Part shown: one piece after another, positions 36,022 to 62,599 of the stretch
How the letters are laid out: every line of letters starts with the position of its first letter
Numbering within the stretch: the stretch's first letter is position 1
From: a virus
IMG/VR virus record: IMGVR_UViG_3300030329_001671
Span: 24,487-88,486 of that record
Strand: one strand, 5' to 3'
DNA: 64,000 bases
The notes under the pieces: generated by a model
Seen by the model: the letters and a program-made list of their open reading frames with translations, nothing else
Told to the model about the DNA's origin: nothing
The model's database searches: none
Made by a program: the position numbers and the translations under genes

Positions 36022-37146
36022 ATGAAACTACGTAACTTTTTAGGGGCTGTGAAAGACTTGATTCTGATGCCCTTTAAGAAAACTCCTGTTAGAAAATTAG
36101 GAACACTTCTACTTTGGACACCAAAAAAGATTGGATGGGTTCTTAGGAAAATACTCCATGGTATTGTAATAGGTCCTAGTTACGTATTTAGAGCGATTAT
36201 AAAATCCCCTAAGAAAGCGTTTAGAAAAGCTATGATTATTAGAGATTGGATGTTGGAAAAGATAGATTACCTAGAAGCGGAGTCGGCCAAGTGGAAGCGT
36301 ACATTCCAGATTATAAAGTCTCCATACAGTTTACTACTAAAGATGGGATTCTCACCCCAGTATGCGATTGGTTTAATAGCTGTAGGTACGACTGCTACTA
36401 CTGGTGTTGTGGCAAACGAAGCTATGAAGCCACCGTCTTTCGCAGCAGGAGACCCCGGCATTTATAATGCACCGACAGACTCACCTATATTTAGTGCTAA
36501 AGAATTTAATACGTTGCGCCTAGATTTGGGTACAACTCCTATTGGGTTAGTTGAAATCTCAGATATTACTGTAGGTACGGCATATAGTAACTCTGCTTTG
36601 CCTCAAGGTGAAACAAAGCCTGTAATCGTTGGTGGTTTGCCGGCGGTTTCCGATCCTGCCTTTGCGGAAACGTTCCTTGAGGTTGGACACATGACTGTGG
36701 AGAAGTGGAGGTGTGACCAACTGTTGCTAACTAATATTGAGGCTCATGATCTCATAGTCAGGGATAATGCTTCAGATGGGCAATCAATCTCTGCAACTGC
36801 GGGTACTCCAAGAGACCGGGGTATTTCTGGTGGTAACAGAGCAGCGGATATGTACACAAGCGGTGGCTACTATGACCAAGTGAAAATCACAGCAGCAACC
36901 ACAAACGTAAACGGAAAGATCGACAGACTAGTTCTAAACAACCTCTACACGAAAGGTGGGGCTTGTGTTCTCGACAGAATCAAGGCGGGTACACTGGAAA
37001 TAATTTTGAATGAGGTTGGACTTGGTAATGGTTTTGCGACTAAGGAATTCCAAATAGCTACTAGCGTTGTATACAAAAACTTCACAAACGAAGACAACGT
37101 AGAAGTTTCTATTGCATCCGCTCCTGCCGCAGCGGGACCAAGCTAG
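36022..37146 (+). CDS. Membrane-anchored protein with beta-rich C-terminal domain
   Basis: Basic amphipathic N-terminus, TM segment near aa 110-130; preceded by GTATAATA at 35966. Confidence 0.65.
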   Translation: MKLRNFLGAVKDLILMPFKKTPVRKLGTLLLWTPKKIGWVLRKILHGIVIGPSYVFRAIIKSPKKAFRKAMIIRDWMLEKIDYLEAESAKWKRTFQIIKSPYSLLLKMGFSPQYAIGLIAVGTTATTGVVANEAMKPPSFAAGDPGIYNAPTDSPIFSAKEFNTLRLDLGTTPIGLVEISDITVGTAYSNSALPQGETKPVIVGGLPAVSDPAFAETFLEVGHMTVEKWRCDQLLLTNIEAHDLIVRDNASDGQSISATAGTPRDRGISGGNRAADMYTSGGYYDQVKITAATTNVNGKIDRLVLNNLYTKGGACVLDRIKAGTLEIILNEVGLGNGFATKEFQIATSVVYKNFTNEDNVEVSIASAPAAAGPS

Positions 37147-38981: not shown

Positions 38982-39236
38982 AATTAGTAAATCTCTAAAA
39001 TAATAAGAAATAACCTCATATAGTATAATAGAAAGTACAGTCACCGTGTAATAATAAGCCTGTTTTACGATGGAACATAAGTATTTTACGATAAATATAT
39101 TTCAAAATATTTCAAATCAGTTCAAATTAGTGTTTTCATGGCCATATTTTCGGCTGAATGTCAAATCCAAAACTATCTTATATAATTATATGGTGAGTTC
39201 AAATCATAAGGTTTTGCCCCTAGGGAAACATAAAAA

Positions 39237-39635
39237 GGGAATTGGGAATCCGGGGAATCGGGAATTCGGGGAAACACTGGGGAATCGGCAATTACGGGGA
39301 ATCGGGAATGCAGGGAATCGGGAATGTGTGGGCAATGCGGGAATACGCAGGGGAATAGGGGAATACGGGAATGTACAGGCAATGTAGGGAATACGGGAAT
39401 ATATAGGGAATCTGGGAATTGGGGGAATTAGAACATACGTTCTAAAGGAATTCGTAAATTAGGGAATTAGGGAATGTAGGAATTCGTAAATTAAATTAAG
39501 GAATTCGACGACTTATAGGGAATTGCCCCTAGAAAAACACAAGCGAATTCGTAATTCTTCCCCGGCGGAATGACCGGGATCGGGGAATCTAAATAAAAAT
39601 TCTAAATTTTTCCAGTAGCAGCTGGAGGGGGAATA
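39237..39635 (+). repeat. Strand-biased array of about 25 degenerate (G)GGAAT repeats
   Basis: gggaattgggaatccggggaatcgggaattcgggg...; copies counted by eye. Confidence 0.9.
39429..39444. promoter_or_regulatory. LexA/SOS-box-like palindrome
   Basis: TAGAAC-ATAC-GTTCTA. Confidence 0.7.
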
Positions 39636-39638
39636 AGA

Positions 39639-39833
39639 ATGGCACGAAGAGGAGTAAAGTCATTGCAAGAGGAATTAGAGGAATACCAAGAGTATCCGGC
39701 AAAAGATTTGCATGACCGGACCCAGCACGAAATTTTAGAAAAACTTTACTGGCAACTGGTTTATACCCGGCAAGTACTTACTGGAATGGGAATGGTCGTC
39801 ATCGTCGTCTTGATCCTGCTGATGCTAAAATAG
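39639..39833 (+). CDS. Small membrane protein
   Basis: GGAGG RBS; C-terminal TM helix. Confidence 0.55.
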   Translation: MARRGVKSLQEELEEYQEYPAKDLHDRTQHEILEKLYWQLVYTRQVLTGMGMVVIVVLILLMLK

Positions 39834-39846
39834 AACAGGTGTTCTA
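39831..39846. promoter_or_regulatory. LexA/SOS-box-like palindrome
   Basis: TAGAAC-AGGT-GTTCTA. Confidence 0.7.
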
Positions 39847-39933
39847 AATTTCACGAATAAATTGGGCAGGGTCGGCGTCTTCCTTTTTGGCCCTTACTTC
39901 GTGAACTTAGTTCTCTCTTTTTATGTTACTTAT

Positions 39934-39962
39934 ATTATAACATACACTTCTACCCTTGTCAA
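39934..39962 (-). promoter_or_regulatory. Leftward consensus sigma70 promoter
   Basis: Minus strand TTGACA-17 nt-TATAAT (perfect), with TG extended -10. Confidence 0.85.
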
Positions 39963-39981
39963 GTCTTTTTGGAGGCAATTT

Positions 39982-40113
39982 ATGAAACAGGCCGAACTTA
40001 CCCGGTTGATGGCTGAGGCCGAGCGGGCGGAGGAAGAAGATTATCAGCTGGCTATCATGAAATATCTCTCTGTTATAGCTCATTCCCTACTTATAGCTGA
40101 CGAAGACGACTGA
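39982..40113 (+). CDS. Small acidic protein
   Basis: GGAGG RBS before ATG 39982. Confidence 0.55.
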   Translation: MKQAELTRLMAEAERAEEEDYQLAIMKYLSVIAHSLLIADEDD

Positions 40114-40265
40114 CTGGAGGAATAGAGCTCCAGTTCAGGCAGCTGAAAAATTTAGAAAAACTTCCCAGTAGCCAGATCCCAGCTACCCAGTGTTTCAGGT
40201 CTCCCGGTGTTCCCGGCCAGATCCGGGGCAAAAATTTAGAAAAGTTGTAATTTCTTATAAAGGTG

Positions 40266-40294
40266 TTGACATGTCCTGAGCTGTCTGTTATTAT
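40266..40294 (+). promoter_or_regulatory. Early sigma70-like promoter
   Basis: TTGACA-17-TATTAT. Confidence 0.8.
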
Positions 40295-40323
40295 ATAAGC
40301 ACACAAACAGGAAGGAAAGAAAA

Positions 40324-40602
40324 ATGTATAAGTTCTTCAGCACACCGTCACACGGATACCTAGCTGTTCCGACAGCAGACTACGAAGCTAGCGGATATAA
40401 GGCTTCCCGCTTCTCCTACAAGCTAGGAGAGCAGTTAGTCTACCTAGAGGAAGATTGCGACGCTAGAGGCTTCATGGACGCTTTCAACGTGTCACTTGAC
40501 GACGTAAAGGAAGTTGTGATAGACTACGACCTAACGCAACGAAAGTCTCTCGAACCGATGAGTGGCGAAGGTTTTGAACTAAGAATAGGAACGGGATACT
40601 AA
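40324..40602 (+). CDS. Conserved early phage hypothetical protein
   Basis: P.HGYL.V...S.FSY....VYLEEDCDA motif. Confidence 0.75.
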   Translation: MYKFFSTPSHGYLAVPTADYEASGYKASRFSYKLGEQLVYLEEDCDARGFMDAFNVSLDDVKEVVIDYDLTQRKSLEPMSGEGFELRIGTGY

Positions 40603-40603
40603 A

Positions 40604-40696
40604 ATGATTAGATGTAACGAGTGTGGACGAGCATTCGACCTGAACGATACTCGTGATGCCGATGAGTGGTATCACGGTCATGACTGTGAGGTATAA
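40604..40696 (+). CDS. 30-aa zinc-binding microprotein
   Basis: MIRCNECGRAFDLNDTRDADEWYHGHDCEV; fills the gap between coupled genes. Confidence 0.65.
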   Translation: MIRCNECGRAFDLNDTRDADEWYHGHDCEV

Positions 40697-40697
40697 A

Positions 40698-40823
40698 ATG
40701 ACTTATGTAGTATGGGTTGGTGGTGTAGACGACCACTACCAAACAAAAGAAGAAGCAGAGCAAGCAACCAAAGAATGGAAAGAGAAAGGCTACGACGATG
40801 TTATCCTTGAACTACGACCATGA
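40698..40823 (+). CDS. 41-aa early microprotein
   Basis: GAGGT RBS; YVVWVGG...W..KGYDDV.LE. Confidence 0.65.
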   Translation: MTYVVWVGGVDDHYQTKEEAEQATKEWKEKGYDDVILELRP

Positions 40824-40850
40824 ATGTGCGGAAAGGAAAATTTAGAAAAA

Positions 40851-41114
40851 ATGACGACTAAACAACGATATGAAAAAATGTTTGTGACGGTTCCTGAGTC
40901 TGCATTAGACGACCCTAACCATGAATCCGCAATAGAGGACATGAATGGGTACATCGAGCGTATGGGGGGAACCGCACACGCTCCTGATGGTATGGACTAC
41001 TCTTGGACTGTTCCCGCTCACTGGACCTTTAGGTTCTACGAGCGATTCAAGTCCTTTGGTCTCAATGCTAGAGTACTTCCCGGTTCGCATTGGTTTGGAA
41101 TGTTAGAAAATTAG
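40851..41114 (+). CDS. Early hypothetical protein
   Basis: ORF in early operon. Confidence 0.6.
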   Translation: MTTKQRYEKMFVTVPESALDDPNHESAIEDMNGYIERMGGTAHAPDGMDYSWTVPAHWTFRFYERFKSFGLNARVLPGSHWFGMLEN

Positions 41115-41117
41115 GGG

Positions 41118-41146
41118 TTGACAAGCATAAAAGTTTATGCTATAAT
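41118..41146 (+). promoter_or_regulatory. Early promoter driving small ncRNA 1
   Basis: Perfect TTGACA-17-TATAAT; the spacer is itself an inverted repeat AGCATAAA-AG-TTTATGCT. Confidence 0.85.
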
Positions 41147-41154
41147 ATAGTCAA

Positions 41155-41227
41155 GCTAGTGAGGCGGGCATGGTCAGACATTCCCTTATGAAGATAAGAT
41201 GACACGCTGAAACCGCCCGCCCCTAGC
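41155..41227 (+). ncRNA. Putative ~75-nt hairpin ncRNA
   Basis: GCTAG/CTAGC, GCGGGC/GCCCGC, GGT/ACC, CAG/CTG and CTTAT-GAAG-ATAAG nested stems after a dedicated promoter; no ORF. Confidence 0.6.
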
Positions 41228-41254
41228 AGAAAAAATATTAGAAAAAGATAGGTG

Positions 41255-41283
41255 TTGACATGTAGTAAAAAGTATGCTACAAT
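41255..41283 (+). promoter_or_regulatory. Early promoter driving large ncRNA
   Basis: TTGACA-17-TACAAT. Confidence 0.8.
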
Positions 41284-41289
41284 ATATGT

Positions 41290-41710
41290 ATGAGGTAAGG
41301 AACTGAGAATTCCTAATGAACAGACTAACTGCGGGTTAGCGCAAGCCTTAAAAAAGCATACCTGTTCAGACTTATCAGTACCTCTAGGAGCGGGAGTGAG
41401 GATACACGCAACAGTCTTAGTTACTTAGTAAAGTATTCAACTCCAATGCTCCGACACTCGGAGTGGAGACTGAAGGGGTCATTACCCGCCACCTGTTTCA
41501 AACGCAGAGTCCAGTCTCAACTGAGGGGAGCGAAAATAGAATATTGAACCATGCAAATGTCCCTCATTCATATGGCAGCATCACAAGTAGTGAGCAATGA
41601 AGAATCCTAGGATAACTTCTCAGCCGATGTCTTGTAATATGCAGACCATCCCTGAACTGCACACATCCCTCTGTTGAATCATATTCTAATATCGCTCCCC
41701 TCTTTTATTT
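41290..41710 (+). ncRNA. Putative ~410-nt multidomain structured ncRNA
   Basis: Four closed domains (GAGGTA/TACCTC, GGAGC/GCTCC, GAGACTG/CAGTCTC, GAGGGGAGCGA/TCGCTCCCCTC), a terminal T-tract and no ORF of 60 aa or more. Confidence 0.72.
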
Positions 41711-41716
41711 AAAGAC

Positions 41717-41745
41717 TTGACAGCCTCTTTGTACTATGCTAAAAT
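41717..41745 (+). promoter_or_regulatory. Early promoter
   Basis: TTGACA-17-TAAAAT. Confidence 0.8.
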
Positions 41746-41767
41746 ATATGTACAAGGAGCAAATGAC

Positions 41768-42025
41768 ATGAACTTAACAAAAGATGGATACCTAGTCGGA
41801 CAGAGCGGTGTGCTTGTTACATGCCCTATCTGTCTCGGTGACATGTGCGGTTGCTACGATGACCTTGAGGTCAAGGGATACCGCATCTGTAAGGGTTGCG
41901 CTAGTGAGTACGAAGCGCATTGGGGTCGCCCACCGTCTAAGGGAACGATTAGCAAAGCTATCAAAGCATTAGTCGCTCAGGGGTTGTGGGACAGAAAAAC
42001 CCACAGCGTCCCTAAAGCGGCGTAA
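41768..42025 (+). CDS. Cys-rich early protein
   Basis: AAGGAG RBS; CPIC...CGC...CKGC. Confidence 0.65.
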   Translation: MNLTKDGYLVGQSGVLVTCPICLGDMCGCYDDLEVKGYRICKGCASEYEAHWGRPPSKGTISKAIKALVAQGLWDRKTHSVPKAA

Positions 42026-42041
42026 AGGAAAATTTAGAAAA

Positions 42042-42251
42042 ATGACACAGCAAGACACATTCTTGGCCTCCCTACGGGGACAATACATCATGGCGCAAGC
42101 CTTAGAGGTTGCCATTGATACGCTAGAAAAAGTAGAACCACCATACATGAGGGAAGAATCCAACATAGCGGACATGAAGTTCCTAAGAGAAAAATTCAAC
42201 TTCCCGATCTTCATGGAGCGGGCATTCCTAGCACAGAAATTTGGAGAATGA
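42042..42251 (+). CDS. Early hypothetical protein
   Basis: S.RGQYIMAQAL..AI..L......E.SNI.DM motif. Confidence 0.7.
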   Translation: MTQQDTFLASLRGQYIMAQALEVAIDTLEKVEPPYMREESNIADMKFLREKFNFPIFMERAFLAQKFGE

Positions 42252-42330
42252 TATGAGAAGGGAAACCATTTGCCTATTCCCTCCCTCATTCCCTCCTATT
42301 CCCTCTAGGCAATAAGCCAATATAGAGGGG

Positions 42331-42375
42331 AATCCCCTAGCAGTTCAGTCATTTCTGCTAGGGGATTTTTTATTT
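42331..42375 (+). terminator. Rho-independent terminator
   Basis: AATCCCCTAGCAG...CTGCTAGGGGATT + T-tract. Confidence 0.85.
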
Positions 42376-42639
42376 CCCCGGCCTTTCTCCAGTAGTTGGA
42401 GGGAAAAATTTAGAAAAAATCTTCAGGAATCACTGGACGAGGCCTACTGGATCTACCAATTTCCGTTTATCAATATACATTCCGCCCAGTCTTCAGCTGG
42501 AATTCTGGTCTGGTGCAGCTGGATCTGGGAAAAATTTAGAAAAATCCCCCCGGCGGATGTAGTCGGGATGCTTCCGGCTCTGATCCCAGCATCCTAGCTC
42601 CCAGCCGGGAATTGCCGGGTCTGGCTAAAATTTAGAAAT

Positions 42640-42668
42640 TTGACGACTCCCCGGTTTTCTGCTATACT
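42640..42668 (+). promoter_or_regulatory. Early promoter
   Basis: TTGACG-17-TATACT. Confidence 0.7.
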
Positions 42669-42686
42669 TTCCGGCCGGAGGAAAAA

Positions 42687-42941
42687 ATGGAAAAAGAAAC
42701 ATACTCGCCCCTATCCAATAAAAAGACTAGGGAGCCATTTTTAGAAAAAATCCAAATATTACATGAGGCTATGGAAAATGTAATTGAGGCACATGAAACT
42801 TGGTTACAGGACGCAACCGATTGGACGAAAAAAGATGAGAGCGGAATGGTTCGCATGTCTCGTTCATGGCTAGACGAATCTCTTGAGGAGGGCAAAGACG
42901 CTCTCAAAAATTTGAAAAAATATAAAATCTTTCAAAATTGA
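42687..42941 (+). CDS. Early hypothetical protein
   Basis: GGAGG RBS. Confidence 0.65.
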   Translation: MEKETYSPLSNKKTREPFLEKIQILHEAMENVIEAHETWLQDATDWTKKDESGMVRMSRSWLDESLEEGKDALKNLKKYKIFQN

Positions 42942-42953
42942 TAGAAAAACCTC

Positions 42954-42982
42954 TTGACAAACGGTTTTCGTTCCTATAATAT
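42954..42982 (+). promoter_or_regulatory. Early promoter
   Basis: TTGACA followed by TATAATAT (15-17 nt spacer). Confidence 0.65.
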
Positions 42983-43018
42983 AGGTAGTACATCAAAACA
43001 AGTGATTTGGAGAAAACA

Positions 43019-43363
43019 ATGATTATCACCCCACAACAGTACCCTACCTTATCAAAAGAGGTCAAAGGCGACCCTCACAATTTCCTAGCGGGAGATGAGA
43101 TAGAAATTTCGGGGACACGTTTCCCTGTGGTACGTCGCATATTCAACGTAGAAGGCGAAATCGAAAAGGTGCTAGTTGCCAAGACGCATGTTCGTATGAG
43201 TGTGCAGAACGATTACCTTGACGCATTTGAAGATGCGATGGAAACCAAAAATTCAGAAAAACTTGAAGATATCGCTCACAAGATATTCGATCAAGTTGGT
43301 ACAACTCTAGTTTCATTGTACGGATTTGAGGATAGTCGTCCTAGCGACGATGAATCTAAGTAG
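43019..43363 (+). CDS. Early hypothetical protein
   Basis: GGAG RBS; own promoter and terminator. Confidence 0.65.
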   Translation: MIITPQQYPTLSKEVKGDPHNFLAGDEIEISGTRFPVVRRIFNVEGEIEKVLVAKTHVRMSVQNDYLDAFEDAMETKNSEKLEDIAHKIFDQVGTTLVSLYGFEDSRPSDDESK

Positions 43364-43383
43364 GTTTCTCCTACCTCTTGTTT

Positions 43384-43422
43384 CTCCCCTACCCACCTAA
43401 TGGGTAGGGGAGTTTTTATTTT
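43384..43422 (+). terminator. Rho-independent terminator
   Basis: CTCCCCTACCCA-CCTAA-TGGGTAGGGGAG + T-tract. Confidence 0.85.
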
Positions 43423-43427
43423 AGCAC

Positions 43428-43456
43428 TTGACAAATTATAAATTTTAGGATATCCT
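43428..43456 (+). promoter_or_regulatory. Early promoter
   Basis: TTGACA-17-TATCCT. Confidence 0.7.
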
Positions 43457-43476
43457 TACGTGTAAGGAGAAAAGAA

Positions 43477-43752
43477 ATGTCTACATACGATTACCTAAAA
43501 ACTGAATCTACTGAGGAGCGAGTGCCAAAAGACGCTGACATCTCGGTAGCCGAAAACTTGAGGTTGTTGCAAGTTGGCGACAGAATCGACGTTTACTCCC
43601 CTATTACTGAGGATTGGACATACGCTTCAGTTCTAAAAGCGAGTGACGATTGGATTGAGACTATATTCACTGATGGTGAGGTTGTAGTTTTTAGTCTAGA
43701 TGAAATGCCGATTTGGAAAAATGAAGGATTCGATATAAGGAGTGCAGTATAA
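43477..43752 (+). CDS. Early protein, SH3/Tudor-like
   Basis: LQVGDRIDVY.....W..A.V pattern; AAGGAG RBS. Confidence 0.65.
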   Translation: MSTYDYLKTESTEERVPKDADISVAENLRLLQVGDRIDVYSPITEDWTYASVLKASDDWIETIFTDGEVVVFSLDEMPIWKNEGFDIRSAV

Positions 43753-44198
43753 TGCCTAATTGGTGCAGTAACGAAGTGCAGGTATATAGCACAAAAGAAA
43801 ATTTAGAAAAATTTATCGACGAGTGTTTCACAGATTTCAAAGGAACGCCTGTTTTAGATTTCAATAAGGTTCTGCCCGAACCTGACTATAAGAAACCACA
43901 GAAAGACGGTACGCATAACAATGGAGTGCAGACTCAGTTATCTACTGTAATGCCTGATTGGTGGACTTGGCGCAATGATACGTGGGGTACGAAATGGAAT
44001 CTAGTACCTAGCGATGACAGTACCTTAGATGGTTACGAGATATTCCAAACCGATGACTGTCTAGAGTTGAGGTTTGATACGGCGTGGTCACCACCTAACG
44101 GTGTCTACGATGAAATTGTTGACAAATACCCTGACCTTGATGTAACGTGGTTCTATCGAGAAGATGGCATGCAGTTTGCAGGTTGGTTGCCTGACTAA
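43752..44198 (+). CDS. DUF1281/YubB ferredoxin-like (Api92-like) protein
   Basis: MPNWC.N, LDFN...P.P, W..WR...WGTKWN, FDTAWSPP, Y.E.GM.FAG. Confidence 0.85.
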   Translation: MPNWCSNEVQVYSTKENLEKFIDECFTDFKGTPVLDFNKVLPEPDYKKPQKDGTHNNGVQTQLSTVMPDWWTWRNDTWGTKWNLVPSDDSTLDGYEIFQTDDCLELRFDTAWSPPNGVYDEIVDKYPDLDVTWFYREDGMQFAGWLPD

Positions 44199-44207
44199 GG
44201 AGTAGTT

Positions 44208-44336
44208 ATGAATTGGAAAAATTTGAAAAAAGCTTGGCAGGAGTCAGGCGACGAGCGTTGGATACAGCACCCGAAGGGTCATCGAGCGCAGAAGAAAGCC
44301 GAGAGGCGCAACCGCAAAGAGGGTAGGCTAAGGTAG
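44208..44336 (+). CDS. 42-aa basic Trp-containing microprotein overlapping the tRNA 5' end
   Basis: AAGGAG RBS; MNWKNLKKAWQESGDERWIQHPKGHRAQKKAERRNRKEGRLR. Confidence 0.55.
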   Translation: MNWKNLKKAWQESGDERWIQHPKGHRAQKKAERRNRKEGRLR

Positions 44337-44389
44337 CCAACAGGTCTCCAAAACCTGAGGAGTGAGTTCGATTCTTACACCCTCTGCCA
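44318..44389 (+). tRNA. tRNA-Trp (CCA), slightly atypical D arm
   Basis: AGAGGGT/ACCCTCT acceptor stem, GGCT/AGCC D stem, CAGGT-CTCCAAA-ACCTG anticodon arm, GTGAG-TTCGATT-CTTAC T arm, G discriminator and encoded CCA. Confidence 0.85.
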
Positions 44390-44390
44390 C

Positions 44391-44421
44391 TCCCCTAGCA
44401 TTTGCTAGGGGATTACTTTTT
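44391..44421 (+). terminator. Terminator after tRNA
   Basis: TCCCCTAGCA-TT-TGCTAGGGGA then T-rich tail; same stem as the 42331 terminator. Confidence 0.75.
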
Positions 44422-44439
44422 ACACCTAAAGGAACGATT

Positions 44440-44928
44440 ATGAGATATTTTACTGGAGCTCCCAGTAGCGACACGGAGAAAATTTTAGAAAAAGTGGCCG
44501 GAAAGTATCAAGCCCGGCATCTATCAAAGAACTCGAAGAAAAGGAAGGCCAGAAAGATTTTTACCGAGAAATCTCTTGAGCAGGCCAAGAAAAATTGGAA
44601 AGATGGAAAGAGAAGTAATTGGTCTTACGATAAAGAGGCTTGGCTAGAAGCAACAGTTCGTACTGAAGAACTGGACATGGGGCGTTATTACTGGATCTCC
44701 CGGAACTGGGAGAAGACCGGGGCCTTTGTAAAAATTTTAGAAAAAAGTACCGAGCTCAATCCAGCTGGTCTGCCGAGCAGCGTAACTGTCGAAGTAGTAA
44801 AACCAGTAGGGGCTTACCAGTTAGGTCAGATAAAACTTATGAACGCCACCCAGATCTTTGACCACCGGGCGCATGCCAGCAAAGAAAATTTTAGAAAATA
44901 TCTAGCCGGGGAGCCTTACATTGTTTAG
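44440..44928 (+). CDS. Basic hypothetical protein
   Basis: AAGGA RBS before ATG 44440; the track start at 44362 lies inside the tRNA. Confidence 0.55.
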   Translation: MRYFTGAPSSDTEKILEKVAGKYQARHLSKNSKKRKARKIFTEKSLEQAKKNWKDGKRSNWSYDKEAWLEATVRTEELDMGRYYWISRNWEKTGAFVKILEKSTELNPAGLPSSVTVEVVKPVGAYQLGQIKLMNATQIFDHRAHASKENFRKYLAGEPYIV

Positions 44929-45011
44929 AAAATTTTCCCAGAAGGTGCGGCGGTACTGGACTGCACAGCGTTGCGGTTGGGACGGAATATGTGCCGAGTC
45001 ACATAAATAAT

Positions 45012-45040
45012 TTGACACTCTGGAGTTTTTATGTTATTAT
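45012..45040 (+). promoter_or_regulatory. Early promoter
   Basis: TTGACA-17-TATTAT. Confidence 0.8.
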
Positions 45041-45062
45041 ATAGAGAACAGGAGTAAATGAA

Positions 45063-45203
45063 ATGAAACAGACATGGGTACTAAGAGAATGGGTCAAGTG
45101 GGTTATATTCTTCACGATTCTATATTTCTTACTAGTATGGGTAGGCTTTCCAATGCCTGAGGTCACCCTACCCTCTGTAAGTTGGGACGGAGTTTGTAAC
45201 TAA
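45063..45203 (+). CDS. 46-aa membrane microprotein
   Basis: AGGAG RBS; WVIFFTILYFLLVWVGF TM helix. Confidence 0.6.
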   Translation: MKQTWVLREWVKWVIFFTILYFLLVWVGFPMPEVTLPSVSWDGVCN

Positions 45204-45242
45204 TGGAAAAGAAAAATTCTAAAAATCCGTGGTGGGCATACA

Positions 45243-45392
45243 ATGACTAAAGTTATACATAGAACACTAAGAGGATACTCACACGAATGCGAAATCGTGG
45301 GGGAAGGTGAAGAAGTAGGTCGTAAGGTTTACGACTTAGCGTGTGGCAAGTGGGCGTGGGAAGAACAAGTAAAAATTCAGAAAAAGGATTGA
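45243..45392 (+). CDS. 49-aa early microprotein
   Basis: Fills the gap, coupled to 45394. Confidence 0.5.
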   Translation: MTKVIHRTLRGYSHECEIVGEGEEVGRKVYDLACGKWAWEEQVKIQKKD

Positions 45393-45393
45393 G

Positions 45394-45639
45394 ATGACAA
45401 CAATAGCAAGAAATAGAAATGAAGCAGAAGTGTATATCATGGACGTTATCGACAAGCTAGGGGGAGGCACAATCACGCAACCCCTACTTGACGACTCCGA
45501 CCCTGATTTTCCATTCGTAGGCTTTAGAGTCGTCAAAGACGAGCAGACGCTAAACGTATGGGTACTACGTGACCCTGAAGGTAATGGAAGCGGTCACCTG
45601 TCGATAGAAGAACCAAATCAATTTGGAAATTTTGATTGA
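45394..45639 (+). CDS. Early hypothetical protein
   Basis: WVLRDPEGNG.G.L motif. Confidence 0.7.
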   Translation: MTTIARNRNEAEVYIMDVIDKLGGGTITQPLLDDSDPDFPFVGFRVVKDEQTLNVWVLRDPEGNGSGHLSIEEPNQFGNFD

Positions 45640-45663
45640 CAATTCACTCCTCCCTGTTATAAT
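45636..45663 (+). promoter_or_regulatory. Early promoter
   Basis: TTGACA-16-TATAAT. Confidence 0.7.
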
Positions 45664-45682
45664 AAATAGCAGGAGGAAGGAG

Positions 45683-45820
45683 ATGAATATAAAAACTGAA
45701 CACAACGGGGCGAAAAACGGCGGGGGATATTGGGGTACTAGGAAGGAAGCAAAGAAATTCAGTTCACGTATACGGCGCATAAATGCCAAAAGTGAAATCA
45801 AACAACAGCTTACCGACTAA
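45683..45820 (+). CDS. Small basic protein
   Basis: AGGAGG RBS; KTEHNGAKNGGGYWG.R.EAK..S...RR motif. Confidence 0.7.
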   Translation: MNIKTEHNGAKNGGGYWGTRKEAKKFSSRIRRINAKSEIKQQLTD

Positions 45821-45842
45821 CCCACCCGCCTACATAAAGAAG

Positions 45843-45920
45843 AACCCACCAACTCGGTGGGTTTTTTGTTGACCAAAATTTAGAAAAATACTTGACGGTC
45901 GTTCTGCCCTATGCTATAAT
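45843..45920 (+). promoter_or_regulatory. Terminator-motif-promoter cassette, copy 1
   Basis: AACCCACC..GGTGGGTTTTT, CCAAAATTTAGAAAAATAC, TTGACG-17-TATAAT. Confidence 0.85.
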
Positions 45921-45948
45921 ATATGTATAACAAGACAGGAGAGAAGAA

Positions 45949-46209
45949 ATGACCCTAAAAATCAACAACCTAAATCGTGATGCAGAAGATTATCTGATTG
46001 AGTTCGTACATGGCGAGCAGGAAGCCGACAGAAATTGGTACTCCCCTATCGTAGATGTTCAATCCATCGAAGATGCCGTACAGTGGCTTACCGACAATGA
46101 GTACGATTGGAAGGAGATGGTTCTAAAGTTTGCGCCGAACCAGAAGTGGGACGACATGGATTGGCAAGAAAAGGAGTGGTGGATACAAAAGGAACAAGGC
46201 ATACGATGA
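45949..46209 (+). CDS. Acidic Trp-rich early protein
   Basis: AGGAG RBS; own promoter and terminator. Confidence 0.7.
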   Translation: MTLKINNLNRDAEDYLIEFVHGEQEADRNWYSPIVDVQSIEDAVQWLTDNEYDWKEMVLKFAPNQKWDDMDWQEKEWWIQKEQGIR

Positions 46210-46227
46210 CCCCTACCACTAAACTAA

Positions 46228-46306
46228 TAACCCACCCTAGCAGGTGGGTTTTTATTGTCCAAAATTTAGAAAAATACTTGACGCCTAAAGCAGAAGGTGA
46301 TATAAT
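46228..46306 (+). promoter_or_regulatory. Terminator-motif-promoter cassette, copy 2
   Basis: AACCCACC..GGTGGGTTTTT, CCAAAATTTAGAAAAATAC, TTGACG-17-TATAAT. Confidence 0.85.
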
Positions 46307-46326
46307 TTAGAACAAGGAGGATAGTT

Positions 46327-46542
46327 ATGAAACTACCATTTGATGTACCGATTATCGACACCGAACCACAAGTAGTGAAGAACCGATTCGGTGGAGGGTC
46401 AGCCACCCTAACACCCGAAGCGGTAGCGGTATACGACACAATCATCGGAGCAGAGCAGTTCCACGACTACGAGACAGTTCAGAAGGGTTTAGCTTGGTTC
46501 GTGAAGCACTACCCCGAAGAATATATGGTACTACTAGACTAG
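46327..46542 (+). CDS. Conserved early hypothetical protein
   Basis: NRF.G....LTP...AVYD.I.GAE...GL.WF...YP..YM.LLD motif; AAGGAGG RBS. Confidence 0.75.
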   Translation: MKLPFDVPIIDTEPQVVKNRFGGGSATLTPEAVAVYDTIIGAEQFHDYETVQKGLAWFVKHYPEEYMVLLD

Positions 46543-46559
46543 TAGTCGAACTCACCAGA

Positions 46560-46591
46560 AAGCCCGCCATTCGGCGGGTTTTTTGCTTTTT
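46560..46591 (+). terminator. Rho-independent terminator
   Basis: GCCCGCC-ATTC-GGCGGGT + T-tract. Confidence 0.85.
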
Positions 46592-46699
46592 AGGACAAAA
46601 TTTGAAAAATTCTAAAAATTTACGACCAGATGCCAATTCCTACGTAGTTATAATATAAATGTACCAACTGGGTACACGGCACGAATCAGGAGAAACTGA

Positions 46700-46879
46700 A
46701 TGGCGAAGAACGTCAAACTGCTCGATATTGTAAACGATAGCCCAAATTACGTGATAGATGTAGTTGAGAAACTATGGAGCATCGTTACAGACATACCAAA
46801 ACCAGTTCAAATTGTTCTGGGAGCTGCAATTGTGGGGCTGGTGCTGGAAAACTCCGGCTATATAACCCTCCCCTTTTAG
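46700..46879 (+). CDS. 59-aa membrane microprotein
   Basis: AGGAG RBS; C-terminal TM helix; followed by a terminator at 46908-46950. Confidence 0.6.
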   Translation: MAKNVKLLDIVNDSPNYVIDVVEKLWSIVTDIPKPVQIVLGAAIVGLVLENSGYITLPF

Positions 46880-47035
46880 TAAAAATTTAGAAAATTAGTA
46901 AAGACAGCCCGGCTTCCGCCCTACACTGGGGGAGCCGGGTTTTTATTTTTACCCGGTACAGCTGCAGGATCATTGGGTACAGCTGCAGGCTCGCCCAGTA
47001 TAGCTCAGGCCAGAAAAGAAAAATTTTAGAAAAAC

Positions 47036-47064
47036 TTGACAGAGCAGATTCTACCCCTTATAAT
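47036..47064 (+). promoter_or_regulatory. Early promoter
   Basis: Perfect TTGACA-17-TATAAT preceded by AAAATTTTAGAAAAA. Confidence 0.85.
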
Positions 47065-47095
47065 AAGGAGACAACATTTAGAGCAAGGAGAGAAA

Positions 47096-47476
47096 ATGGG
47101 TTTTGAATCATTAGGAAGAAAAGAAGCCAAATTTTTGGCATCAGTTAGTCAAGAGAAACTAGCCGAAACGTTCAAAGAAATGGGTTTGACCGTCGATATG
47201 GGACGTTCTACCTATTACGCCGAAGGTCACAAGTTAGACTTCAAGTTCTCGGTGGAACTACCTGAGAAAGCGGACGTTATGAAAAATTCAGAACTTTCGT
47301 TATATGGGTTAGATGCTAAGGTCGGAGATGAGTTCTCGGATTGGAGTGGAACTAAGTTCCGAATACTCGGAGTCAACAAAAAAGCTAGGAAGTACCCTAT
47401 CAAGATACTACGTCTAAGCGATAACTCACAACGAAAAGCACCTGTTGACTTTGTTCGGCGAGCATTGAAAGGATAA
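47096..47476 (+). CDS. Early hypothetical protein
   Basis: AAGGAG RBS; YGL...VG.EF....F.I.G......KYP motif. Confidence 0.7.
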   Translation: MGFESLGRKEAKFLASVSQEKLAETFKEMGLTVDMGRSTYYAEGHKLDFKFSVELPEKADVMKNSELSLYGLDAKVGDEFSDWSGTKFRILGVNKKARKYPIKILRLSDNSQRKAPVDFVRRALKG

Positions 47477-47494
47477 AAATTTAGAAAATTTAGA

Positions 47495-47552
47495 AAACCC
47501 GTCAGTGATGGCGGGTTTTTTATTTGACATATATCGAATATGGGTGTAAAGT
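47495..47552 (+). promoter_or_regulatory. Terminator fused to next early promoter
   Basis: AACCCGTCA-GTGA-TGGCGGGTT + T-tract, then TTGACA-17-TAAAGT. Confidence 0.75.
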
Positions 47553-47580
47553 ACATATAACGAAAACAAGGAGCGAGAAA

Positions 47581-47793
47581 ATGAAAACACTAACAAAACA
47601 ACACCTAGATGAGTTTCTAGTATTAGCTAATGGGTTATCTCCCGAAAACCTACACATGGACGGTGAAGCTACTAAAAAGCAGGTTACGCAACGTCGCAAG
47701 ATTCTAATGGGTCAATGGCGACAGTTAGAAAAAGCCGTTGGAAGAAAAGTCACCGAAGAAGATGTTTGGCAAGAGTTTTTCGCTAGGAGATAA
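47581..47793 (+). CDS. Conserved early hypothetical protein
   Basis: LSPENL..DGE......R...L......LE...GR.V.E motif; AAGGAG RBS. Confidence 0.75.
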   Translation: MKTLTKQHLDEFLVLANGLSPENLHMDGEATKKQVTQRRKILMGQWRQLEKAVGRKVTEEDVWQEFFARR

Positions 47794-47795
47794 GA

Positions 47796-47978
47796 ATGAT
47801 TATTGATACATGCCCAACATGCCACCAAATAATTGATGAGGGAGATATGCCGTTGACCATAGAACAAGCACACATCGATTCTGACGAACACGCCCGACGA
47901 TGTGATGATGAGAATTGCAACGAGTGCGACTACGATTCTAGCGACGTCGATTATGGTGACTATGACCCGTCCGTATAG
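47796..47978 (+). CDS. Small acidic Cys-rich protein
   Basis: CPTC...H...C....C..C; AGGAG RBS. Confidence 0.6.
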   Translation: MIIDTCPTCHQIIDEGDMPLTIEQAHIDSDEHARRCDDENCNECDYDSSDVDYGDYDPSV

Positions 47979-48059
47979 TCAAAAAATGACCCCTTAACCT
48001 AGTTTTGGGGTCATTTTGGTTATTTTGGTCATATATACCAAAATTGACCCTATATATGC

Positions 48060-48087
48060 TTGACACCATATGTCCATATGCTAAAAT
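48060..48087 (+). promoter_or_regulatory. Early promoter
   Basis: TTGACA-16-TAAAAT. Confidence 0.7.
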
Positions 48088-48122
48088 ATAGATACAACAA
48101 AACAAGGAACGGAGAAAATAAC

Positions 48123-48470
48123 ATGAAACTCATCAACGACGAACAAGCCTTTAGCATCTTAGAGGGTACACGGGCGCAAGGTACAATCTTCAACGTAACG
48201 TTCATCAAGCGCACTACGGGTGAGGTACGCAACATGAGAGCAAGACTCGGCGTGAAGCGTGGAGTTACAGGCGTAGGCATGGCATACAAGCCTAGCGAGA
48301 AGAATCTCCTTGCTTGCTACGACGTAGAAAAAGCCAAAGAGATGAAGGCGCAAGGTATGGACGATGTAACCGCATCGAAAAAGTCATACCGCATGATTGA
48401 CCTAAACAGTATCCTCAACATGACGGTAGGCGGTCAAGCATACCAAGTCTACACAACTGAGAAGTTGTAA
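48123..48470 (+). CDS. SH3/WYL-like fold early phage protein
   Basis: F.VTFIKRTTGEVR.M.ARLGV...YD......YR.I.L motif. Confidence 0.7.
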   Translation: MKLINDEQAFSILEGTRAQGTIFNVTFIKRTTGEVRNMRARLGVKRGVTGVGMAYKPSEKNLLACYDVEKAKEMKAQGMDDVTASKKSYRMIDLNSILNMTVGGQAYQVYTTEKL

Positions 48471-48694
48471 GACACCGCACACAAGCCTCTGCGCTCCCTA
48501 CGGGGAGCGTAGGGCGCATAGAAAAGAAATGACATGAACATCATCAGTAAGCTATTACACAAGCACACATACAAGAGAACATACTACTTCGGGCATGTAC
48601 CGATGACAGTATGTACCGCATGTGGACACATAGCCGACTATGGGCGCATGTACTCTAACGGTAGCCACTAACACCCTACCCTATACACCCCACA

Positions 48695-48727
48695 ATATCC
48701 CACTGTAACAAGTGGGATATTTTTTAT
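48695..48727 (+). terminator. Terminator closing the early island
   Basis: ATATCCCACT-GTAACA-AGTGGGATAT + T-tract. Confidence 0.8.
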
Positions 48728-48754
48728 CTGTCAAAAACTGGTGCATGGCCGGGT

Positions 48755-48924
48755 TAGCACATATGTTCTACTCAAAGAAAAAATCTCACCCCACAATCGG
48801 CGTCGTCATCGGTGGCGATATTGTCGGCGTCGTCATCATCATTAGCATTAGCACATATGTTCTATCGGTCAGACATTGCCCCGACGTAATAAAGGGCAAG
48901 TTACGTAATAGAACAAATGTTCTA
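48755..48924. promoter_or_regulatory. Cluster of three LexA/SOS-box-like palindromes
   Basis: TAGCAC-ATAT-GTTCTA at 48755 and 48849; TAGAAC-AAAT-GTTCTA at 48909. Confidence 0.7.
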
Positions 48925-49070
48925 GGGAACCCATAAAGGGAGCCTAGCCATTCCCACGGCGGACGGGAAATCCGAAAAAAGGGGTTATTATAATAAGTAG
49001 TAGACAGCACATAAAACGGTGAAAGTATGATATAATAAAAATAACGCTAGCTATATCGCCGGGGGTTATA

Positions 49071-49346
49071 ATGAAATATGCAGTCCGCACAATAGAGTAT
49101 TTTGCTCATATGGGGGCAGAAGCTAGAACGACCCCTTACCTTGACGATAGAGAGAAGTTGAATCTGATGTCCGAGTACTTCGAGATTATTTTGGATGTAG
49201 TAGACGGTGATATGACTAGAGTAAAAGATTGGCATCTAAAAAGCATCAGAGGAGAAGATAATGAAGACTACGACGAAGAAGAGACTTGGCTTACTGGGAG
49301 CGGCTGTGGCTGCGGTGGGAGTTGTCTATGCGGTCAAGAATCGTAA
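49071..49346 (+). CDS. Acidic protein with Cys-rich tail
   Basis: Ends in GCGCGGSCLCG. Confidence 0.55.
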   Translation: MKYAVRTIEYFAHMGAEARTTPYLDDREKLNLMSEYFEIILDVVDGDMTRVKDWHLKSIRGEDNEDYDEEETWLTGSGCGCGGSCLCGQES

Positions 49347-49461
49347 GGTTATCTCTGAGAAAACCGAAAACGTAAAGGAAAAGGCTGCTTTGCGTGTGCA
49401 TACAAAGCTAGGAATGCCCGCATACAGATACCTGAAAGAAAGGAACTACATACCGTTCTAA
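49261..49461 (+). CDS. Small membrane-anchored protein
   Basis: GAGGAG RBS; LGLLGAAVAAVGVVYAV helix. Confidence 0.6.
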   Translation: MKTTTKKRLGLLGAAVAAVGVVYAVKNRKVISEKTENVKEKAALRVHTKLGMPAYRYLKERNYIPF

Positions 49462-49548
49462 TGAAAACCCTACTTGAAAGAATTGTTGACATGTTGAGGC
49501 GGATACCGAAGACTCCTCCGCCGGCCAAGAACACTAGCTAACATCTAT

Positions 49549-51227: not shown

Positions 51228-51641
51228 ATGTACGAATACTACTGTACTGTTCTAAAAATCGTAGATGGAGACACCCTTGACGTTGATATAGACTTGGGGT
51301 TCTCTACTACCCTTAGGAAACAACGTATTCGTATGCACGGCATCGACACTCCTGAGTCTAGAACTAGAGATTTGGAAGAAAAGGCTAGAGGGCTTCTCTC
51401 TAAAGAGTTTTTACAATCCCAATGTCCAGTTGGTTCCAAAGTTCGCCTCTACAGTCACGGAAAAGGTAAGTTTGGAAGAATTCTGGGTGAAATTTATACA
51501 GGATATGGAGACAGTATAAATAAAATAATGTGCGACGAAGGGTTTGCAGTCGAGTACACAGGTGGCAGTAAGGATGAGTTGACTGCGAAACACTTAGCCA
51601 ATAAAGATAAATTAATTGAGAAAGGACTTTTATCCGTATAA
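51228..51641 (+). CDS. Thermonuclease (SNase)-like nuclease
   Basis: VDGDT.DV.IDLGF, RIR..GIDTPESRT, GKFGRILG. Confidence 0.9.
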   Translation: MYEYYCTVLKIVDGDTLDVDIDLGFSTTLRKQRIRMHGIDTPESRTRDLEEKARGLLSKEFLQSQCPVGSKVRLYSHGKGKFGRILGEIYTGYGDSINKIMCDEGFAVEYTGGSKDELTAKHLANKDKLIEKGLLSV

Positions 51642-61047: not shown

Positions 61048-61323
61048 ATGCTTTATACTGAAGGTAAAATTACAGGAAAAGGATTTCTAACACACGCAGA
61101 TCGAGAAGCGGGTGTAAATTTACAAGTGTTTGGACCTATACTAGTGGTTCCAGATGGATGTGAATCGTGGTTATCCCGTAACGAATTAACCGCTATATCC
61201 AAATCAGATGCACAAACAAAGTATAATACATTTATAGATGCACAAATAGCATCGTATGAAGATGAGACTAAGCCGTGGTATTACCCGGAGAGAACGGAAC
61301 CAGTTAGGAAAACACTACCATGA
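61048..61323 (+). CDS. Hypothetical protein
   Basis: TGKGFLTH.D motif; GGAG RBS. Confidence 0.65.
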   Translation: MLYTEGKITGKGFLTHADREAGVNLQVFGPILVVPDGCESWLSRNELTAISKSDAQTKYNTFIDAQIASYEDETKPWYYPERTEPVRKTLP

Positions 61324-61994
61324 GTAATATAGAACTATTCGACAGAGTAAACGGGATGCTTTCCCCGGAACAAAGTAATAAGCTAAATGAGTTGTCATCT
61401 GAGTTAGATGAAACTTACGTAAAGAAGCAATTTTTCCGTACTCAGACAGAAATGTTGTTTTCTGTTTTGGAAGACGGTAAGCATCCTACAATAGCCTCAA
61501 AATACTGGCAAGCTGTTCGAGAGCAGTCTGTATTTTACGAACAACTAATTTCGCTTTCGTTTAAATACCGAACAAATGAAATTAATATTATGGAAAATCA
61601 AGAAAAGCTAGAGAATGAACACCTTGATAAGTACGAGCGTATGCGCCTTGAGGTCGATCTAGACGCACAACTATTCAGTAAAAAGGGAATGCAGATTGAA
61701 GCAAAAGACCGTATGCGAGAATTAGAATTATGGTCGCAGATAAAAACGGCGTTAGTAGAAGCTGACCCTGATTTCGACACAGATGATGTGGACGTTCATC
61801 AGGCAGACTCTTATCTAAAGAGACTAGAGCATCGTAAAAATGCGCTGACACCGCAGTCCGGTCATGCGGACATAGCTAATGTATATGGACAACTAAATAC
61901 TTTGAAACGACTACTAGAACAACGGGAAACCCCGCTAGCAAATATGCTTAAAGACACCATTTCCAATAAACAATTATCGGGAGCCGCAGATTAA
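61320..61994 (+). CDS. Conserved coiled-coil protein of aquatic phage tail regions
   Basis: KKQ.FRT.TEM.FSVL...HPT.ASKYWQ.VREQ...AKDRMREL..WS. Confidence 0.75.
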   Translation: MSNIELFDRVNGMLSPEQSNKLNELSSELDETYVKKQFFRTQTEMLFSVLEDGKHPTIASKYWQAVREQSVFYEQLISLSFKYRTNEINIMENQEKLENEHLDKYERMRLEVDLDAQLFSKKGMQIEAKDRMRELELWSQIKTALVEADPDFDTDDVDVHQADSYLKRLEHRKNALTPQSGHADIANVYGQLNTLKRLLEQRETPLANMLKDTISNKQLSGAAD

Positions 61995-62599
61995 TGGGAT
62001 ACATTGGGGATAACCCACAATCGTATTTAGATTTCCAAGGTGCGGGTAGTCAACCCACACATGGATTAGAGTTAACAGCTTCTAGTGTTAACTTTACTAG
62101 TCAATCGGAAATAGACTTTACTATACCTGACAGGTATGAGTTATACGAGTTTTACTTTATAAATATTCATCCAGCATCTGCTTCAAGGTTTGCATTTCAG
62201 GTAAACACGGCTGATAACACTGGTTGGGATCGACCCATATCTTCTACTTTTTGGTATACATGGCATAAAGAAGATGCTTCTTCAGCGGGTGAAGGTTATG
62301 AAGGGAATAACGATCAAGGAGTTAGTGATGGAGCGTTTCAAAACTTCACTGGTGAAGATATGAACACAGATAACGACTCGTCTCTATCAGGTGTTTTTCG
62401 GTTGTTTAACCCTAGTAACGACACATATTCTAAACATTTCTTAGGACTCACTCATTATTTTCAGGGAGACCCAACATCTCAGGCTGCCTATCTAGCTGGT
62501 TACGTCGATACTACGACACCTCTTACAGCAATTAGATTTAAGATGCTTAGTGGCAATATGGATTCTGGGTCAATTTATATGTATGGGGTAAAGGCATAA
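61994..62599 (+). CDS. Tail-associated paralog family member 3
   Basis: YEFYFINIHP...GNMDSGSIYMYG. Confidence 0.75.
   Translation: MGYIGDNPQSYLDFQGAGSQPTHGLELTASSVNFTSQSEIDFTIPDRYELYEFYFINIHPASASRFAFQVNTADNTGWDRPISSTFWYTWHKEDASSAGEGYEGNNDQGVSDGAFQNFTGEDMNTDNDSSLSGVFRLFNPSNDTYSKHFLGLTHYFQGDPTSQAAYLAGYVDTTTPLTAIRFKMLSGNMDSGSIYMYGVKA

Follow-up and report, generated by a model that had tools for sequence, protein, structure and literature searches.

Islands of short GC-rich words between the early operons of an uncultured marine phage

Why should a phage crowd a few short words into a handful of patches and leave the genes between these patches almost free of them? This question is raised by a stretch of 64,000 nucleotides (nt), here called the window, which comprises bases 24487-88486 of the 88,486-bp IMG/VR record IMGVR_UViG_3300030329_001671. 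The record belongs to an uncultured virus and is rated complete; positions are those of the window unless otherwise said. Between about 39.5 and 47 kb this DNA holds four patches, the islands, that are dense in CCGG, CCAG/CTGG and CAGCTG. The long genes all lie on the + strand and include those for DNA polymerase, terminase, portal, protease, capsid and tail fibre. The public runs holding the phage, which were used as assembled contigs, are marine or seawater metagenomes. Two of these runs from 2014, X1 and X2, contain 98-99% of the sampled words. Neither megablast nor blastn gave a DNA match to cultured-phage relatives, and no phage record has a terminase more than 24% identical to this one.

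The islands lie in the early domain (39500-49500, + strand), which has about 16 near-consensus sigma70-type promoters (TTGACA-17-TATAAT), intrinsic terminators and small genes, together with two promoter-driven RNA genes and one tRNA-Trp. Word counts here have a bimodal distribution, and there is almost no TTAA. From the layout of promoters and small genes we infer that it is the first DNA to enter the cell, the leading region of the genome.

Word-dense islands in a word-poor early domain

The islands were picked out by eye in a first-pass annotation, and the positions quoted there are right to within 1 nt (CCAGTA at 39612, 40165, 42389, 44462, 44803 and 46995, TACTGG at 42445); the direct repeat GGTACAGCTGCAGG was likewise found at 46955 and 46976. 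In the 1,701 nt delimited by that reading, CCGG occurs 27 times where the rest of the window would predict 2.6, CCAG 22 times (2.9), CTGG 24 times (3.7), GGCC 12 times (0.9) and CAGCTG 8 times (0.12). CCAG and CTGG, with 22 and 24 copies, show no polarity. The annotation had proposed a control for GC content, and the enrichment survives it: the islands have 46.6% GC and the window 41.7%, a difference far too small to cause a 5-10x enrichment.

Because the patches had been chosen by eye, the full 88,486-bp genome was scanned blind in 200-nt windows, a cluster being defined as seven or more words. Clusters were found only at 39523-39915, 39966-40378, 42287-42804, 44350-45049 and 46727-47108, with a weak, marginal one at 21240, and the expectation from local base composition is 3-4 times lower than the counts observed in them. 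The top count was 17, against a maximum of 12 in 100 second-order Markov genomes. Moreover, the variance/mean ratio of the word counts is 6.9 in 39.5-49.5 kb, where 52% of the bins are empty, compared with 1.3 elsewhere and no more than 1.70 across 108 other 10-kb stretches. The word-dense patches are real and, by the blind scan, confined to the early domain.

The early genes between the patches had been described as nearly lacking the words, and both synonymous permutation and a ranking of 4-mers show the deficit to be stronger than claimed. The 7.56 kb between the islands contain two CCGG (12.6-15.8 expected), four CCAG, four CTGG, two GGCC and two GATC (18-27 expected), while GCGC, CCGC, GCGG, CCCG, GTGG and GGAG stand at expectation. 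When all 136 strand-symmetric 4-mers were ranked, the eight most depleted were TTAA, CCAG/CTGG, GATC, CGCG, CAGC/GCTG, ATTA/TAAT, CCGG and GGCC, with AGCT lower in the ranking. The depleted words that are at the same time enriched in the islands are CCAG/CTGG, GATC, CAGC/GCTG, CCGG, GGCC and AGCT. Late DNA is near normal (CCGG 0.94, CCAG/CTGG 0.85, AGCT 1.04). The 23 early genes outside the islands hold 22 words, against 64.8±6.0 when synonymous codons are permuted within each gene (minimum 44 in 2000 permutations). Since the deficit persists under this permutation, the purge acts through codon context and not through codon usage or protein composition.

Some words are avoided without being gathered in the islands. 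TTAA occurs four times between the islands, where 47 are expected, and is absent from them. CGCG is missing from the whole 88-kb genome (about 134-150 expected) and was found twice in the relatives described below (loci L102-L133), where 266 are expected. CCWGG is absent from the whole genome and from the relative L101, whereas many other relatives have it. Beyond the early domain TTAA returns to 1-5 copies per 500 nt, and the edges of its purge mark the domain borders sharply.

Words laid over a conserved gene and islands in related phages

One island had been said to lie entirely within an open reading frame, with the signal superimposed on coding. This frame, 44440-44928 on the + strand (island C, word-rich to ~44975), is a real conserved gene, because it has 27 homologues in marine metagenomes (54-95% identity) with many invariant residues. 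Its 162-amino-acid (aa) protein had no match in viral contigs. The gene holds 22 words compared with 7.3±2.3 under a null that keeps the protein sequence and the codon usage of the phage (z 6.5). The homologues are bimodal: six lineages carry 19-22 words (z 5.6-8.9) and the others 0-6, at equal protein identity. The superposition therefore exists at the DNA level, in the window and in relatives, and such an on/off state fits a cooperative, density-dependent signal. Excess words were also found in genes 39639-39833 and 39982-40113 and in the 3' end of gene 46700-46879, but in none of about twenty other early genes.

The same DNA carries a second, A/T-rich motif, AAAATTTAGAAAA, here called the A-box. 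About 25 copies lie in window 39596-47500, and hardly any occur outside these 8 kb or on the - strand. Many occupy the UP-element position, 2-20 nt upstream of TTGACA, and others are promoter-less or intragenic. Two inverted copies (39596-39613 and ~39835-39851) lie downstream of a leftward promoter, which shows that on either strand the motif is oriented with transcription. Around the A-boxes CCAG and CTGG have neither polarity nor an ordered arrangement. In the pooled 62 islands of the family the spacing of the words peaks at 7, 14 and 21-22 nt, which fits repeated units on one face of the helix.

Three A-boxes lie in gene 44440 (44479-44492, 44730-44744 and 44885-44898). They are read as K-I-L-E-K at two places of the protein and, in another frame, as E-N-F-R-K at the third. 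Residues K98-I-L-E-K102, N150, F151 and K153 are invariant in 18 of 18 aligned homologues, down to 49% identity, and the three A-boxes are retained in the DNA of many of them. Either the DNA motif constrains the protein here or the protein constrains the DNA motif.

All four islands stand, with some correction of their limits. What had been taken as the first island is two non-coding patches around two small genes. Patch A1 (39555-39640) precedes a 64-aa gene with a hydrophobic C-terminus (39639-39833, + strand; 7 words against 2.2, P 0.002; 98% identical in L101) and contains the inverted A-box at 39596-39613. Patch A2 (40105-40232) has 11 words between A-boxes at 40146 and 40230, with promoter 40266-40294 just downstream. 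Inside this slot also lie the leftward consensus promoter (39934-39962, - strand, TTGACA-17-TATAAT) and a 43-aa gene (39982-40113, + strand; 4 words against 0.6), with islands on both sides in every relative that has it. Island B (42372-42690) is 320 nt of non-coding DNA with 23 words and three A-boxes (42404, 42530, 42627); before it stands a terminator-like hairpin with a T run, read from the sequence (42334-42373, + strand, repeat family D7), and at its far end lie promoter 42640-42668 and the beginning of gene 42687. In the fourth island, D (46800-47020), gene 46700-46879 contributes its word-rich 3' end, and there is a terminator at ~46905-46945. Island D further holds an A-box at 46881, a 21-nt tandem duplication (46955-46996) and an A-box at 47019, with promoter 47036-47064 downstream.

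The islands sit between terminators and the promoters at 40266, 42640, 45012 and 47036. The purged early genes fill the intervals between A and B (40240-42370, with the RNA genes), B and C (42690-44317) and C and D (44980-46800), all on the + strand. No tandem array was found by TRF inside the islands of the window, and, A-boxes and promoters excepted, no repeat family covers them. Inverted repeats in 39000-47600 reach at most 30-33 nt (70-84%), and these longest ones involve promoters or A-boxes. As to tRNA remnants, ARAGORN and Rfam match only the tRNA-Trp at 44318-44389, just upstream of island C.

Alignment of the 44440 protein served to fetch 34 metagenomic loci, which share one-strand A-boxes and islands with the window. 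The closest, L101, is a 20-kb part of a contig of 86 kb, and the proteins of its early genes are 85-100% identical to those of the window. Recurrent island slots are those around gene 39982 and the leftward promoter, before gene 42687 (occupied also in L101, L108, L114 and L115) and after gene 46700 (filled in nearly all lineages), and the 44440 slot is used in some lineages only. The same slots are filled across relatives with only 50-60% protein identity, and the interiors of the islands are not alignable between genomes. In L101 the 21-nt duplication of island D is replaced by a tandem repeat of CAGGATC units, and contigs of strain variants break at islands. In L114 a segment homologous to the leftward promoter lies between island halves. 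There (4240-4340), as in L115 (~5400), a homologue of 39830-39965 follows the homologue of gene 48078, with half an island on either side of it, far from gene 39982, its neighbour in the window.

The composition is shared as well. In the non-island early DNA of the pooled distant relatives the observed/expected ratios are 0.45 for CCGG, 0.29 for GGCC, 0.42 for GATC, 0.20 for TTAA and 0.01 for CGCG, and the islands are also rich in words that played no part in their definition (AGCT 3.1x, CAGC/GCTG 2.2x). The words had been called near-cognate to the avoided CCWGG, and this tie is real: relatives that tolerate CCWGG have 10.4 per kb in islands and 0.30 per kb outside (139 in 13.3 kb and 46 in 152.5 kb), which is about 35 times denser. 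Nevertheless CCAG followed by A, C or T is the commonest form in relatives (289 sites against 129 CCWGG), and the flanks of CCWGG, CCAG and CCGG in islands show no conserved bases and no extended motif. Because of this, and since CCWGG is dispensable in the phage of the window, the core is CCRG/CYGG with CCGG, no single word being indispensable.

The word pattern is under selection and is common to related phages. A simple mosaic origin, which the first-pass annotation had kept in view, is refuted by the conserved gene slots and by the tests at codon level. A sister group, fetched from viral contigs by means of a 374-aa gene (36022-37146) and a 148-aa gene (43752-44198), shares several early genes at 45-72% identity and has neither A-boxes nor islands, and was for this reason unsuitable as a test of island spacing. 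A scan of viral contigs for a pattern of two A-boxes returned mostly AT-rich contigs of giant viruses, which we took as chance or unrelated matches.

What the islands might do

We tentatively suggest, with less than even confidence, that the islands are boundary modules of the early region that act in cis and are read at the DNA level, promoter-less A-boxes and word clusters forming together a platform for a DNA-binding factor with many sites. Such a module would follow a terminator or the end of a small gene and precede a strong sigma70-type promoter, and its promoter-less A-boxes would be flanked by dense GC-rich words of 4-5 nt: the core CCRG/CYGG and CCGG, with GGCC, AGCT, CAGCTG and GATC, and in relatives CCWGG too. 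Selection would retain the density of the words and not one particular sequence. A factor reading short cores, which might be an early phage protein, an injected protein or a host protein, would bind cooperatively, and the resulting nucleoprotein complexes at operon boundaries could serve as insulators, roadblocks or anchors. The words would have been removed from the early transcription units as binding there would hinder the host RNA polymerase on the incoming DNA, and the near-regular spacing of 2.0-2.4 kb would be an outcome of operon sizes and no part of the signal. A density signal at the DNA level is suggested by the patches, the purge, the on/off gene, the conservation by slot and composition, the promoter-less A-boxes and the weak spacing preferences.

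Several observations weigh against this proposal and keep our confidence low. No DNA-binding protein was identified, and the early proteins had no informative Pfam or PHROG matches. The product of the island gene is predicted to have a basic N-terminus and an SH3-like barrel (Tudor/PWWP/KOW-like; pLDDT 70, Z at most 6.3), and so common a small beta-barrel gives no functional inference. An island is found at only four of the ~16 early promoters, and the islands of the window, taken alone, show no clear period and no significant 7-nt spacing. The phage has lost all CCWGG and kept its islands. The joint enrichment of unrelated words (CCGG, GGCC, AGCT, GATC and CCAG) with unconserved flanks is unusual for one sequence-specific protein, and such a mixture looks more like sites of restriction or modification enzymes.

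This resemblance is the basis of the main rival explanation, in which the words are targets of restriction or modification enzymes, the phage's own C5 cytosine methyltransferase being one candidate. The islands would be clusters of methylation- or restriction-type sites on the first-entering DNA, either 5-methylcytosine-dense marks or decoys and sinks for host nucleases, and the early genes would be site-free since leading DNA is exposed before anti-defence functions are expressed. We consider it rather doubtful. The enriched words (CCGG, GGCC, AGCT, GATC, CAGCTG, GAGCTC, and CCWGG in relatives) are classic C-containing sites of 4-6 nt, and their unconserved flanks agree with this. The phage also encodes a C5 cytosine methyltransferase (504 aa; genome G000:C1:18494-20008, outside the window; L134:1480-2994; PF00145, E ~1.6e-37 to 1.7e-39), with motifs I-VIII in residues 8-263 followed by a C-terminal part of ~240 aa; no N6/N4 or Dam-type methyltransferase was found. 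A second long open frame (18492-19937), which has no family match, overlaps the methyltransferase gene in another frame. Triple specificity is known for a methyltransferase of Bacillus phage SPR, which is said to recognise GGCC, CCGG and CCWGG. The genome-wide absence of CGCG and CCWGG and the purge of the C-free TTAA from early genes and islands alike also speak for restriction, and in published cases motif-free DNA is needed in the first-injected region only, as for T5 with EcoRI and Marinomonas Murciavirus with Type I (PMC12455610; bioRxiv 10.1101/866236). On the other hand, host enzymes that cut these words would make islands in leading DNA lethal, and protection by the phage methylase would make the purge of the early genes needless. 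Moreover, the commonest word, CCAG without a following G, is unusual as a site for methylases or type II enzymes, and neither cutting nor protective methylation alone explains purge and concentration in one region. We know of no case of a restriction decoy at the DNA level. The stricter claim, that the islands are deliberate clusters of such sites, written by the phage's own methyltransferase as 5-methylcytosine marks for a phage or host factor to read, or acting as true decoys that keep host nucleases busy during expression of the site-free early operons, is in our judgement unlikely. If it were true, they would be an anti-defence or epigenetic device at the DNA level, a prokaryotic-virus counterpart of CpG islands, in which the words are split into marked spacers and clean genes.

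The remaining explanations appear weaker still. That the islands are recombination junctions, their words offering a phage nuclease or recombinase favoured sites or microhomology for the exchange of early gene cassettes between operons, we find quite improbable. It agrees with the heavily shuffled order of early genes among relatives, the breaks of strain-variant contigs, the purged genes, a conserved small endonuclease gene (51228-51641) and the mobile units that islands flank (gene 46700 in L127, the duplicated leftward-promoter module in L114 and L115). Yet selection for evolvability is a weak force, from which neither a 5-10x enrichment nor a recoded conserved gene would readily be expected, the interiors are too dissimilar between genomes for homologous exchange, and late genes retain the words. 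The first-pass annotation had itself proposed a spaced code that paces genome entry, with stops or anchors every 2.2-2.6 kb, or anchors loops, and this we hold to be very improbable. The four island-associated promoters of the window are 2374, 2372 and 2024 nt apart, an evenness found in only ~0.9% of the choices of four from 16 promoter slots (post hoc P ~0.008, three gaps), and the collinear L101 has similar gaps (2594, 2187 and 1837). Islands A and D bracket the 8 kb rich in A-boxes and are the two kept in most lineages, and the first-step-transfer DNA of T5 has untranslated repeat regions, one of them tied to an injection stop signal (bioRxiv 10.1101/866236). The regularity holds for this genome and L101 but is not conserved: the gaps of other relatives, which have other gene orders, are 351, 411, 669, 1031, 1421, 1427, 2020, 2182, 2473, 2597, 3004, 3433, 4303 and 8191 nt, L102, L109 and L110 have no inner islands, and some lineages keep just the two outer ones. 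By the annotation's own criterion the spaced code thereby fails, and entry pacing is weakened; the early domain also lacks DnaA boxes and long inverted repeats of the T5 kind. There is only a slim chance that the self-complementary words (CCAG/CUGG, CCGG, GGCC) act in RNA as hairpin zones, back-up terminators or RNase III-type processing sites, as in T7. The islands do lie between operons just past terminators, and a long imperfect hairpin is present at 42485-42630 (-57 kcal/mol, z -2.2). But for six of the eight island segments the fold is no more stable than that of dinucleotide-shuffled sequence (z +0.7 to -1.4), and of the two with z below -2 one holds an ordinary terminator; no Rfam family matches in the islands, CCAG and CTGG are unordered around the A-boxes, and the unalignable interiors offer no covariation for structure. 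The smallest chance of all we give to functionless low-complexity spacer, produced in non-coding gaps by replication slippage of 7-21-nt units. The differing repeats of island D here and in L101, the 7, 14 and 21 nt spacing peaks in relatives and the fast evolution of the interiors would suit it. Slippage is nevertheless largely refuted. It cannot explain why 23 early genes are poorer in words than their codon usage predicts, why several lineages have recoded a conserved gene to hold 19-22 of them, or why slots are shared at only 50-60% protein identity. Chi-like protection, decoys for CRISPR protospacer-adjacent motifs (PAM), phosphorothioation motifs, gyrase sites and sigma54 promoters were set aside on reasoning alone, some of them because the words have no strand polarity or because other CC/GG-rich words are unaffected.

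Among described systems the repeat regions of T5-like first-step-transfer DNA are the closest by context. T5 and its relatives have untranslated repeat regions R1-R3 in this DNA, including the injection stop signal, with conserved sequence and order, eight DnaA boxes and a 131-nt inverted repeat pair (bioRxiv 10.1101/866236). Like the islands, they are several non-coding patches rich in repeats or palindromes among the pre-early and early genes of a leading region of ~10 kb, and their position is conserved among relatives while neighbouring genes vary. The window has seven DnaA boxes (TTWTNCACA) in its 64 kb, where chance gives 6.5, and none between 39 and 49 kb. The islands further differ in having no long inverted repeats, in conserving word composition only, in extending into coding DNA and in the purge of the neighbouring genes. 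They are not members of the T5 repeat-region family, since every defining sequence feature that could be compared is lacking.

Arrays of heptads or iterons, short unspaced repeats to which small proteins bind cooperatively, offer another comparison, the omega protein of pSM19035 being known to bind 7-nt heptads cooperatively (PMC9499535). Like such arrays, the islands repeat a short core many times, in both orientations and ahead of promoters, and spacings of 7 or 21-22 nt are seen when the islands of the family are pooled. The islands differ in that no heptad is conserved beyond the core of 4-5 nt, several unrelated cores occur together, a search for a cognate protein found none and the periodicity in the window is weak. 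Repetitive extragenic palindromic (REP) sequences and bacterial interspersed mosaic elements (BIME) of enterobacteria are GC-rich palindromes that alternate with A/T-rich protein-binding motifs after operons, in units of ~35 nt. The islands share with them GC-rich palindromic material and A/T-rich motifs after operons; they have no unit consensus and are confined to one 10-kb phage region.

The purge half of the pattern fits the known rule of restriction-motif avoidance in leading DNA, as seen in the loss of TTAA, GATC, CCGG and GGCC from 39.5-49.5 kb. The published cases of avoidance are depletion only, whereas here the words are also concentrated 2-6x in patches of the same region. For this enrichment, and for the separation of the words between spacers and genes, we know of no earlier description. 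Leading regions are where a phage first contests host defences and transcription, and their non-coding parts, the T5 repeat regions among them, have gone unexplained for decades. In this family a signature is common to the group: words kept off the early genes, packed into a few patches between operons and written through codon choice, on or off, over a conserved gene. The separation of the words argues strongly that some factor recognises words of 4-5 nt in DNA as it enters, and suitable test DNA is at hand, an island against a purged gene or the "on" alleles of gene 44440 (window or L108) against an "off" allele (L109).

Other features of the early domain

At the left border of the early domain (39237-39530) lie ~25 GGGAAT units with linkers of 1-5 nt, followed by GAATTCGTAA repeats. 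In relatives other short-repeat arrays take its place, such as GAGGTCA in L011 and TTAAGTAACTT in L013. The SRL and SRR arrays of phage T7 are degenerate ~7-nt arrays beside the terminal repeat at the leading end, once per end, before strong host-type early promoters. The GGGAAT array resembles them; the islands, interleaved with the early operons, are a different element.

Two GAAC-N4-GTTC palindromes (39431-39442 and 39831-39842), which have the form of a Gram-positive-type LexA box, lie near the perfect leftward promoter at 39934-39962. A transcript from this promoter would run antisense to the 64-aa gene 39639-39833, whose product has a hydrophobic tail, and by analogy the layout recalls a type I toxin-antitoxin module.

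Seven paralogous-looking genes of ~200 aa form a run across both ends of the record (window 61320-63809; G000:C1:23-1839). The assembly probably broke inside this gene family, and for this reason the record ends are unlikely to be physical ends of the genome.

One promoter-driven stretch, 41255-41710, has ~400 nt without an open reading frame. Marine metatranscriptome contigs from the same sample as one of the DNA holders cover 41365-41696 at a contig depth of 22-29. The RNA contigs of this one metatranscriptome lie on that segment and on a few genes, and their absence from the islands was given no weight. In strain variants 41302-41379 is swapped for other sequence.

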